Positions 12,676 to 15,193 of a stretch of DNA of 32,000 nucleotides are shown here, in pieces. The stretch covers positions 1-32,000 of the forward strand of contig JAWOFX010000075.1 of assembly GCA_046497275.1 (NCBI GenBank), given 5' to 3'. A program made the translations under genes and the position numbers. The notes below the pieces were generated by a model. The model ran no database searches. It had not been told where the DNA came from and was given only the letters and a program-made list of their open reading frames with translations. This DNA is from Promethearchaeia archaeon. Its GTDB lineage: Archaea; Asgardarchaeota; Lokiarchaeia; Sigyniarchaeales; SOKP01. The stretch's first letter is position 1. Each line of letters starts with the position of its first letter.

Positions 12676-13238
12676 ATGTCAAGTTTCAAATTAAAGGTCC
12701 TACTAACTGGAGCTGCCGCGGTTGGAAAAACCAGTCTAGTCCAGAGATTTATCAAAAATAGATTCCAGCAGAATTATAAACTCACAGTTGGTGTTGACAT
12801 CTTAACTAAGGATGTAGAATTTAAGCCGGGTGAAATCGCTACATTATCCATTTGGGATATTGGCGGGCAATCTTAGAAAATTTATTCTAAGACCCAAGAC
12901 AACGTTTCGAATTCATCCGGAGCACCTTCTATAAAGGAGCGGCAGGAGCTCTATTAGTATTCGACCTAACGCGAGAACAAACGTATACAGAAACAAGGAA
13001 ATGGTTAACTGAAATCAGACAATTTGCTGGAGAGAATATTCCATTTATACTAATTGGTAATAAAGCAGATTTATTAGAAGACGTCGGCAGAGTAATTGAC
13101 CAAGATGAAGCGAGAAATTTTGCGGAAAATGAAGGAAGTATTTATATTGAAACCTCCGCAAAGACAGGAGATAATGTTGAGGATTCATTTACAGAATTAA
13201 CTCGCCGTATAATTGAATCAAGAACTCAAGGGCAATAA
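12676..13238 (+). CDS. Rab-like small GTPase, 177 aa, split: join(12676..12869,12899..13238)
   Basis: Exon 1 (in the ORF track): G1 GAAAVGKT, TVGVD, LSIWDIGGQ. A different frame from 12900 (not in the ORF track; it contains no ATG/GTG/TTG) reads QRFEFIRSTFYKGAAGALLVFDLT...GNKAD...ETSAKTG...GQ*, covering RabF3-F5, G4 and G5. Removing 29 nt joins them as WDIGGQQRFEF. Confidence 0.92.
12870..12898 (+). other. Putative tRNA-type (relaxed bulge-helix-bulge/BHL) intron, 29 nt, in the Rab-like mRNA
   Basis: Pre-mRNA reads CGGG CA^A UCUUAGAA AAUUUA UUCUAAGA CCCA AG^A CAAC. It has a perfect 8-bp intron stem and a central helix GGG/CCC plus a C.A mismatch. The two 3-nt bulges are CAA and AGA. An exon-exon helix 12850-12862/12900-12912 pairs at 12 of 13 positions. 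Cutting after nt 2 of each bulge excises exactly 29 nt and restores the frame. Confidence 0.75.
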
Positions 13239-13456: not shown

Positions 13457-15193
13457 ATGGATAAACAAAGAATTCTAAAAGAAGCTCAACAATTGGCATC
13501 AAAATATTCTTTTTGGATGGTTTCTGGCGATATTTCACATTTATATGGATATATTTATGAAACCCCCGATAAAAAATTTGAATTAGAGATAAAGTTTCCC
13601 GAACAATTCCCTCAAAAACCTCCCCACATAATATCTGATGATGACATTAAAAGTTATTTAGGAGAGCCTAATCTTAAAGGAATTTTACAATGGAGACCTG
13701 AGAATAATGTTTTGAATATTGTTGATGAATTATATGAAATGCTTCTAAATAAACTAGAACCTTCAAAATCTCAAGAAAAAGATATGATACAATCTCCCGA
13801 ACACCAAGATCTCTCAATAAGTAAACCTGAGGAAATCAATATTTCCTCAACACCGGATATTGATGAAACTGAAGAATATATAACACCAGATTTAAACCAA
13901 TATCCTCCGGATGATTTTATAGAACCAGAAGCTTTTACTCCTTCGGGAGATGAATTATTTTATGATGAGTCACCTATTTCACCCTCACCATCCCACGAAC
14001 CAACACAAGATCAAGATGAATATATCATTCCAGAAAATGCAGTCACTTCACCTGAAGAGCTTTTTATTTCTCCTGATTCTACAAGTCTGGCAAATAAAAC
14101 AGAATTAGCACTTCTCCAACAAGAATATGCATATGACCAAAAAACGGGAAACCCTGCCAATGTAGTTGTATATCTTACAATTACTTTAACCAGAACCTTT
14201 ATGATTAATATTGATTTCTCGAGCTATCCTGAGAAACCAACAATTTCTTTTCCAGATGAAGTTACCGCGTTAATTGGAAATCCCTACAATTCGTTGGAAT
14301 CTTTAAAAAATTGGAATAGTAAAAATCCTCCTCATATAATTGATATTTTCCATGAACTAGAGAAGAAATTATTTACACTTAAAGATATTGAAGAGCAATT
14401 GCGTAAAATCTCACAAGAATTTCAAATAGAGTCCGATTCGAGAAGTTTAACTATGATAAAAGTACATCTTCTCACCTATGGATTTGATGAATATGTCATT
14501 GATGTGGATTTAGAACCTTATCCTAATCCCCCAAAGATTGACATTTCTTCGGAATTAAAAGATATGATCGATAAACCTATTGAAGAATTTAATTCTATAC
14601 AGATATGGACTAATAATCAATCAGAACCTATTGAAGTGATAAGAGAATTATCGTGGTTAGTGGATAAATATTCTCGAATCAATTTTGAATTAGAATTACT
14701 CAAAGTTAATTATCAAAACGTTTCATATGATTCCACAGTAGATACTCTTAGGGTTGATATGAAAGGAAAAATGAAAACAGAGGATATAACATTTGAATTT
14801 AAAATTCAATTACCAAGAGATTATCCCATGAGTATACCAAAAATCTCTGTGATTAATGAATTTGAGTTAGAAACACATGAAAAAATTAGAGAAGATTTAC
14901 ATCACTCATTTGAAGACTTTTTCGATGAATGGACTCCTTATAATTATCTTGTTGATTTATTTAACTTAATTTCGAAAAAAATATTCGAAGTTTCAGTTAT
15001 TGCATGTGTAATATGTCACGATATTGAATGCCCAACTTGTTCTTTAAAGATTGCTGGCGAGGGAGAAACTTGTCATGTTGCTTGTCCATACTGTGATAGA
15101 GTTTATCATAAACATTGTTGGGATCAAACTATAAAATCTTTTGGGAAATGCGGTTTTTGTTTAAAAGTTCCTCCCCCCAATATGATGCCCTAA
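13457..15193 (+). CDS. Four UEV/RWD (E2-like, no catalytic Cys) domains plus a C-terminal C4HC3-type RING/Zn finger; putative E3 ligase
   Basis: RILKE...FELEIKFPEQFPQKPP...WRP gives an E2-fold signature without HPN or Cys. Three further YPxxP modules follow (SSYPEKP, EPYPNPP, RDYPMSIP) after an acidic Pro-rich linker. C-terminus is CVICH..CPTC...C...CPYC...YHKHCW...GKCGFC. Confidence 0.75.
   Translation: MDKQRILKEAQQLASKYSFWMVSGDISHLYGYIYETPDKKFELEIKFPEQFPQKPPHIISDDDIKSYLGEPNLKGILQWRPENNVLNIVDELYEMLLNKLEPSKSQEKDMIQSPEHQDLSISKPEEINISSTPDIDETEEYITPDLNQYPPDDFIEPEAFTPSGDELFYDESPISPSPSHEPTQDQDEYIIPENAVTSPEELFISPDSTSLANKTELALLQQEYAYDQKTGNPANVVVYLTITLTRTFMINIDFSSYPEKPTISFPDEVTALIGNPYNSLESLKNWNSKNPPHIIDIFHELEKKLFTLKDIEEQLRKISQEFQIESDSRSLTMIKVHLLTYGFDEYVIDVDLEPYPNPPKIDISSELKDMIDKPIEEFNSIQIWTNNQSEPIEVIRELSWLVDKYSRINFELELLKVNYQNVSYDSTVDTLRVDMKGKMKTEDITFEFKIQLPRDYPMSIPKISVINEFELETHEKIREDLHHSFEDFFDEWTPYNYLVDLFNLISKKIFEVSVIACVICHDIECPTCSLKIAGEGETCHVACPYCDRVYHKHCWDQTIKSFGKCGFCLKVPPPNMMP

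Follow-up and report, generated by a model that had tools for sequence, protein, structure and literature searches.

What does it mean when a gene for a small GTPase is broken by 29 nucleotides inside the very motif that carries its catalytic glutamine? The question is raised by a 32,000-nt stretch of DNA, here called the window (positions 1 to 32,000 of contig JAWOFX010000075.1, forward strand), from a Promethearchaeia archaeon of the Lokiarchaeia. In this window a highly conserved Ras/Rab-like GTPase gene (12676-13238, plus strand) is interrupted at 12870-12898. The genome, G000 in what follows, is a metagenome-assembled genome (MAG) of 3.85 Mb in 188 contigs with 30% G+C, which is 98.9% complete and has an estimated contamination of 4.4%. 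Our analysis indicated that the 29 nt at 12870-12898 are very probably an archaeal bulge-helix-bulge (BHB, tRNA-type) intron in the coding sequence of the GTPase, as a first-pass annotation made from the DNA letters had proposed.

To begin with the reading frame, the upstream frame starts at ATG 12676 (MSSFKLKVLLTGAAAVGKTS...SIWDIGGQS) and ends at a TAG (12874-12876) inside the insert, so unspliced mRNA would give a truncated peptide of 66 amino acids (aa), while 12900-13238 is again an open frame (QRFEFIRSTFYKGAAG...TQGQ and stop). The Pfam Ras profile (162 positions) matched the first piece at profile positions 1-57 and the second at 60-161, which means that together they make up one G domain, with the break falling in the WDxxGQ (G3) motif. 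Exon 1 (12676-12869, plus strand) accordingly comprises codons 1-64 (MSSFKLKVLLTGAAAVGKTS...SIWDIGG) and the CA of the Gln65 codon, and it holds the P-loop, switch I and the first part of the G3 motif. Exon 2 (12899-13238, plus strand) supplies the third base of Gln65 and codons 66-176 (QRFEFIRSTFYKGAAG...ESRTQGQ), followed by the stop TAA at 13236-13238. Removal of the putative intron (AUCUUAGAAAAUUUAUUCUAAGACCCAAG, 12870-12898, plus strand) joins CA to A to give CAA (Gln65), with GGCGGGCA joined to ACAACGTTTC as the predicted junction, and the result, GGG CAA CAA CGT, reads GGQQRF as in the orthologs whose coding sequences were extracted. Excision of 12871-12899 gives the identical mRNA because 12870 and 12899 are both A. 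A TAG at 12874 in the exon 1 frame and a TAA at 12888, in the exon 2 frame and upstream of exon 2, mean that a single frameshift cannot join the halves.

These results bear out what had been claimed of the gene itself, namely that a Rab gene is interrupted by 29 nt (the Ras profile continues across them), that only two registers of removal restore GGQQRF, that no single frameshift would repair the frame, and that exon 2 is open and free of decay (dN/dS of 0.03-0.05, see below). The host had also been called Asgard-like, and the orthologs are indeed annotated as Rab family GTPases of Promethearchaeota or Lokiarchaeota archaea. A second ortholog-level copy was not found in G000, where the next-best exon 2 matches are about 45% identical. 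A contiguous spliced form of this allele was not found in the protein collection, in which the best full-length match is intronless and 96% identical. No Rfam match and no ARAGORN match was obtained within the window.

The archaeal splicing endonuclease EndA cuts a BHB motif after the second base of each 3-nt bulge. For 12845-12917, RNAfold returned a minimum-energy structure of -18.3 kcal/mol (z = -3.1, with 0 of 200 shuffles as stable) that is exactly the structure drawn in the first-pass annotation. In this structure, all on the plus strand, the central helix is formed by CGGG at the end of exon 1 (H, 12864-12867) and CCCA at the 3′ end of the intron (H′, 12893-12896), a pairing given by both the fold and the BHB register. 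It contains three G:C pairs (GGG 12865-12867 with CCC 12893-12895) and a C.A mismatch, and this fourth position is U:A in the allele of genome G012 and G.U in that of metagenome contig Ga0114923_10029690. On one side lies the 5′ bulge CAA (12868-12870; predicted EndA cut at 12869/12870), which is followed by the intron hairpin h′ (12871-12892) with an 8-bp stem (12871-12878 with 12885-12892) and a 6-nt loop (12879-12884). On the other side the 3′ bulge AGA (12897-12899; predicted cut at 12898/12899) is part of a 1x3 or 2x4 internal loop that faces G12863 (and C12864), and an outer exon-exon helix, also drawn by RNAfold, joins 12850-12862 to 12900-12912 with 12 of 13 positions paired (8 Watson-Crick, 4 G:U). 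The cut rule, applied as CA^A and AG^A, excises exactly 12870-12898, the 29 nt whose removal restores the frame. With fixed end points, a central helix of at least 3 of 4 pairs and an adjacent stem of at least 7 bp, such a structure is met by chance at about 3 in 10,000 positions, as determined genome-wide from about 2,300 matches per intron length over 7.7 million positions.

Is this agreement between structure and frame peculiar to one allele? When 135 genomes of the family were searched with exon 2, about 130 orthologs were obtained. Nearly all of them are uninterrupted (176-190 codons open), including that of the same-genus genome G002, and eight alleles carry inserts of 29-31 nt at four codon positions of the Rab gene. 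The Gln65 codon is interrupted by 29 nt in G000 and G017, by 30 nt in G012 and by 31 nt in Ga0114923_10029690 (Ga0114923 below). Inserts of 30 nt lie between Asp60 and Ile61 in G010 and G015, another of 30 nt lies inside the Asp41 codon in G125, and one of 31 nt lies between Lys35 and Leu36 in G132. All eight bring a premature stop into the upstream frame. The ends of the inserts were set solely by alignment to intronless orthologs, before BHB geometry was checked. This check showed that all eight alleles have a central helix of 3 or 4 out of 4 pairs with a hairpin adjoining the 5′ bulge, and that the cuts between the second and third bases of the 3-nt bulges are in every case the frame-restoring sites. 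The claim that cut sites and frame coincide therefore holds here and in the seven other interrupted alleles. The full 4-bp central helix is present in G012, G015, G125, G132 and Ga0114923, and G015 is a textbook BHB (UGGG/CUCA, cuts AU^U and AA^A, 10-bp stem, z = -3.1). The outer exon-exon helix in the strict register is weak across alleles (0-2 pairs), which makes these relaxed motifs of the kind that needs a broad-specificity enzyme. The identical 29 nt were also found in two Joint Genome Institute (JGI) metagenome contigs, Ga0102944_1001403 and Ga0209918_1000276, whose gene differs by one residue.

Then, selection on the interrupted alleles was analysed in the spliced frame. The dN/dS was 0.035 for G000-G017 (dS 1.27), 0.053 for G000-G012, 0.032 for G017-G012 and 0.034 for G000-Ga0102944, and intronless pairs gave 0.03-0.08. 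Such low ratios at synonymous saturation indicate that the interrupted genes kept coding for the full protein in the spliced frame, and both exons are intact in all eight alleles. An insert confined to one strain with relaxed selection, which would have spoken for decay, is thus not what was found. The intron sequence itself appears to be constrained. It differs between G000 and G017 at 6 of 29 positions despite the dS of 1.27, and the introns at the Gln65 site are alike (z of 4.5-8.1 among G000, G017 and their partners, 0 of 500 shuffles), with G012 and Ga0114923 weakly similar to each other (z of 2.0, 18 of 500 shuffles). Within the stem, pairs vary from C:G to U:A and from G:C through G.U to A:U, with double changes at two stem pairs, and 87.5% of the cells pair across four alleles, versus 58-62% when the partners were slid by one column. 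No other copy of the intron was found in G000, and the core of the G125 and G132 introns is likewise single-copy in those two genomes, which means that the inserts are not a multi-copy repeat.

Genes for suitable enzymes are present. G000 encodes two EndA paralogs, one of 201 aa on contig 46 (C46) and one of 200 aa on contig 168 (C168), both with PF01974 and PF02778. The C46 protein could be aligned over its whole length to the A. pernix protein 3P1Z_B, which is the catalytic subunit of an alpha2-beta2 enzyme (E = 3e-38), and it retains the basic residues K44 and R46 of the Crenarchaea-specific loop (CSL), as SKPR versus EKPR. This loop, with Lys44, confers a broad substrate range that includes introns at non-standard positions and relaxed bulge-helix-loop (BHL) motifs (PMC3241643), in agreement with the earlier statement that some EndA enzymes accept relaxed motifs. 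The C168 protein lacks the catalytic His, as would be expected of a structural beta subunit, and Asgard EndAs have been described as (alpha-beta)2 enzymes bearing this loop (PMC5829648). Two RtcB ligase genes are also present, so G000 is predicted to encode an alpha-beta EndA of the broad-specificity type together with RtcB. ARAGORN reported only 26 tRNA genes in G000, 14 of them flagged with introns (some doubtful), which fits reports that the tRNA genes of Asgard archaea are heavily interrupted; most tRNA genes of G000 are probably hidden by non-canonical or multiple introns.

From these elements the following course of events can be proposed. In the pre-mRNA, the end of exon 1 (CGGG) would pair with the 3′ end of the intron (CCCA), giving a helix flanked on one side by the CAA bulge and the 8-bp intron hairpin, and on the other by the AGA bulge and a weak exon-exon helix. 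A heterotetrameric alpha2-beta2 EndA with the relaxed-motif loop would cut CA^A and AG^A, and RtcB would ligate the exons, by which the catalytic Gln65 codon of the WDIGGQ motif would be rebuilt and a 176-aa GTPase encoded. Any mRNA left unspliced would end translation at TAG 12874 and yield the 66-aa fragment.

The Rab gene is not the only interrupted gene in G000. Among the candidates of a structure scan we picked seven further genes, so that at least seven more genes carry inserts of 29-32 nt with the same geometry and with a Pfam profile or canonical motif that is continuous across the junction. Two encode cold-shock proteins, with a 30-nt insert at C20:17894 (plus strand; exon 2 begins at position 13 of the CSD profile) and a 29-nt insert at C121:8542 (minus strand) at the same codon position. 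The others are a UbiA prenyltransferase (C111:36455, 30 nt; profile positions 3-48, then 53-231), an ABC ATPase (C59:8285, 32 nt; LFLDEPT, then TGVD), a thiolase (C105:26548, 30 nt; Thiolase_N 1-52 in exon 1, thiolase C-terminal domain in exon 2), an AMP/thymidine-phosphorylase-like protein (C171:12136, 31 nt; DKHS, then TGG) and a DeoC-family aldolase (C98:30530, 30 nt; the DeoC profile runs to the end of exon 1, and exon 2 has no Pfam match). A BLAST comparison of junction peptides with all open reading frames of the genome recovered the Rab intron (15 paralog matches) and an ABC ATPase, and was otherwise noisy. In the two cold-shock paralogs the inserts sit between W[YF]D.R and KGYGFI and differ in sequence; either the intron is older than the duplication or the site is a hotspot.

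Other explanations of the interrupted Rab gene have to be weighed against an EndA-spliced intron. The one to which we give most weight, and which we still regard as very unlikely, is another route of removal or tolerance, such as a different RNA endonuclease or ligase, excision at the DNA level, or readthrough of the stop in the in-frame 30-nt versions. The motif is relaxed in the present allele, so recognition by EndA is not guaranteed; on such a route, however, the match to the EndA rule in all eight alleles would be a coincidence. Readthrough would be no rescue for the 29- and 31-nt versions, and across alleles it would have to pass all three stops (TAA, TAG and TGA) and add 10 residues to the switch regions. 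That the insert simply inactivated the gene, leaving a pseudogene or a non-functional allele in this lineage, is very unlikely in our estimate. This idea can draw on the fact that most orthologs, including that of G002 in the same genus, lack the insert, that the unspliced frame stops after 66 codons, and that a truncated duplicate of the Rab gene does exist in G005. A pseudogene is nevertheless hard to reconcile with a dN/dS of 0.03-0.05 between interrupted alleles at synonymous saturation, with exons that are intact in eight of eight, with an insert that is itself conserved and keeps its pairing, and with the lack of any other ortholog-level copy in G000 (next-best exon 2 matches about 45% identical). 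As for the G005 copy (G005:C40:5400-6200, L041), this second Rab gene lacks the first ~50 codons, is present from ...GEIATLSIWDIGGQQRF onward and has unrelated sequence upstream; it is a 5′-truncated duplicate and probably a true pseudogene.

Translational bypassing of the T4 gene 60 or mitochondrial "byp" type, in which ribosomes would take off at CAA 12868-12870, skip the hairpin and the stop, and land at CAA 12900-12902, is extremely unlikely. G000, G017 and Ga0114923 do have CAA on both sides, a stop two codons past the take-off and a hairpin directly after the take-off codon. The product would, however, read GGQRF and be one residue short of the GGQQRF of the extracted and translated orthologs, with the conserved Gln deleted. 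In G012 the take-off position is CAU, without a CAU or CAC landing codon, and neither G010 and G015 (GAU then AUA) nor G125 and G132 offer matching codons from which the protein could be restored, so bypassing accounts for at most three alleles and BHB geometry for eight of eight. An assembly or sequencing artefact would be conceivable for a MAG of 188 contigs with 4.4% estimated contamination, and we give it next to no weight: the identical insert in two independent JGI contigs means that it did not arise in assembly, and homologous inserts occur in three other assemblies. Two further classes of element were rejected. A group I or group II intron or an intein is ruled out by the 29-nt size, the stop codons and the lack of an Rfam match, and insertion of a miniature inverted-repeat transposable element or an insertion sequence was dismissed for a single-copy insert in a host gene with a dN/dS of 0.03-0.05.

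Several points nevertheless weigh against a BHB intron and keep us from a firmer statement. Cleavage and ligation in the cell, and the enzymes responsible, are what we infer from the fold, the agreement of cut sites with the frame, the conservation, the purifying selection and the enzyme genes. The motif of the present allele is relaxed, with three pairs and a C.A mismatch in the central helix and a 3′ bulge in a 1x3 or 2x4 internal loop, and its outer helix in the strict register is a single pair. Fold energy was no better than that of shuffled sequences in three of the four other alleles folded (z of -1.05 for G017, +0.22 for G012 and -1.05 for G010). The alignment of orthologs, suggested in the first-pass annotation as a check, did give presence and absence at four positions, but the double stem changes are not significant: with four alleles, the count of three was reached by 46 of 500 shuffles. 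The exon-exon helix had also been offered as support for the intron, and while its pairing at 12 of 13 positions is real, it is not special to the interrupted gene, since in 21 orthologs without insert these two stretches of exon already pair at 9-11 of 13 positions, 10.0 on average. The 13-nt helix is thus a by-product of conserved coding sequence and not intron-specific. Between the IWDIG and QRFEF codons, 9-12 of 13 positions are complementary in all orthologs, whether or not they carry an intron, and two of the four intron sites lie within the span of this pre-existing helix. At most, such complementarity may have made the site permissive.

A census of G000 weighs on the same side. It covered both strands with BHB geometry and intron lengths of 12-150 nt, required that removal join two open frames, and used cut sites shifted by one base as decoys; there was no excess over these decoys, however strict the thresholds and whether or not a codon-usage coding score was applied. 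Its background consists of chance BHB-like folds at boundaries of adjacent genes, for example C174:28448 (carA/carB) and C100:48754 (two HdrA-like genes). The class is therefore not recognisable from structure alone, and a census needs homology. The last difficulty is kinetic. Archaeal translation can begin on nascent RNA. Splicing would have to be faster than the ribosomes, which would otherwise unfold the motif and terminate at TAG 12874.

How did the introns come to occupy four positions in one gene? Presence varies within genera (G000 with, G002 without), and in a gene tree of 26 orthologs the intron-bearing G010 is sister to the intronless G021 (support 99/93). The tree is mostly unresolved, so that one gain with several losses and several gains at the Gln65 site are inseparable. 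The introns of G125 (L039, C9) and G132 (L040, C24), two genomes of one genus, are clearly related in sequence (GCG.ATTAGGA...TCCTA.TCGG; z of 6.2, 0 of 500 shuffles), and they sit 16 nt apart in the Rab gene; their last six bases differ, each set fitting the exon next to it by base pairing. A resemblance (z = 4.3) was also seen between the Gln65-site intron of G012 and the Asp60-site introns, part of which is forced because both pair with exon UGGG. Taken as sequence comparisons, these observations suggest that introns may relocate within the Rab gene. On our reading, the Rab intron is one of a population of mini-introns of about 30 nt in protein genes of G000 and its relatives, which are gained and lost on the scale of genera. 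It is quite possible, and we put it forward tentatively, that protein genes of Lokiarchaeia, including eukaryotic signature genes, host dynamic EndA-dependent mini-introns of about 30 nt that are repeatedly gained, precisely lost and even relocated, and that would have been built on tRNA machinery, separately from both group II introns and the spliceosome. This broader picture is drawn because of the four positions in one 176-codon gene, the related introns 16 nt apart in G125 and G132, and the differences in presence within a genus.

Directly downstream of the Rab gene in the window lies a gene (13457-15193, plus strand) for a 578-aa protein with a C-terminal Cys/His-rich, zinc-finger-like region. 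In Logan contig L057 an intronless Rab ortholog is followed by the same neighbour, of 586 aa and with faint UQ_con and RWD matches, so the Rab gene and the E2/RWD-like gene form a syntenic pair.

The crenarchaeal cbf5 pre-mRNA intron was reportedly studied by Watanabe in 2002 and by Yoshinari in 2006. Introns of this kind occur in the cbf5 pre-mRNA of Desulfurococcales and Sulfolobales (Yokobori 2009; PMC2738675). As of 2020, crenarchaeal cbf5 mRNA was the only further example of a BHB intron beyond tRNA and rRNA, besides an intron in a Haloferax 5′ untranslated region (UTR) (Schwarz et al. 2020; PMC7714728), and the first-pass annotation, which had named cbf5 as the sole established archaeal protein-gene BHB intron, agrees with that account. 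No paper on BHB introns in Asgard protein genes was found in the literature searched, whose coverage is incomplete, so that publication elsewhere is possible. Like the cbf5 intron, the Rab intron lies in the coding sequence, goes together with a heteromeric EndA bearing a specific loop, and shows lineage-specific presence with precise absence among relatives. Unlike cbf5, the host is a Rab-like GTPase, a eukaryotic signature protein, in a different phylum (Asgard, Lokiarchaeia); four positions of the same gene are occupied across genomes; at least seven further genes of G000 are interrupted alike, whereas cbf5 was reported as a lone case (PMC7714728); and splicing has been shown experimentally for cbf5, whereas here it is deduced. 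Homologous membership in a cbf5-type intron family was rejected, the host being a Ras/Rab-family GTPase of Promethearchaeota/Lokiarchaeota, and the two would work alike. The Rab intron would extend the kind to another phylum and to a eukaryotic signature gene, and it is in the number of sites and of interrupted host genes that the case goes further than cbf5.

The non-canonical tRNA introns of Asgard archaea and Thermoproteales (PMC11291895; bioRxiv 10.64898/2026.10.13.758758; PMC5829648) share with the Rab intron the motif and a predicted alpha-beta EndA with the L1/CSL loop together with RtcB; they too are short and hairpin-like and have been gained repeatedly at many positions. The difference is that the host here is an mRNA, in which the exon half of the motif also codes for protein and excision must restore the frame and compete with translation. 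The 5′ UTR BHB intron of Haloferax volcanii HVO_1309 (Schwarz et al. 2020; PMC7714728) likewise presents an mRNA as substrate of the archaeal splicing endonuclease, but that intron lies in an untranslated leader and leaves the coding sequence uninterrupted, and the Haloferax EndA is of narrow specificity. Very short mRNA introns, a protein endonuclease, RtcB-type ligation and a change of frame upon removal are features that the Rab intron would have in common with eukaryotic HAC1/XBP1 splicing, from which it differs in endonuclease and motif, and none of our results indicates regulation in the Rab case. In HAC1/XBP1 splicing, which takes place in the cytoplasm on mRNA of mature appearance and is stress-regulated, IRE1 cuts at stem-loops with twin 7-nt loops and tRNA ligase or RtcB joins the ends; the XBP1 intron is 26 nt long.

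In the literature searched, coding-sequence BHB introns of archaea are known from cbf5 as the single gene family, so that a second case would already be notable, and for the Rab gene the junction and the cut sites are predicted to the nucleotide. For annotation, the finding means that gene callers split or truncate such genes; here a 66-aa fragment would be annotated and the G domain would be missed. If the introns are real, EndA and RtcB would process a substantial set of mRNAs in these organisms, and interrupted protein genes and splicing of mRNA would already be tolerated in the lineage nearest to eukaryotes.

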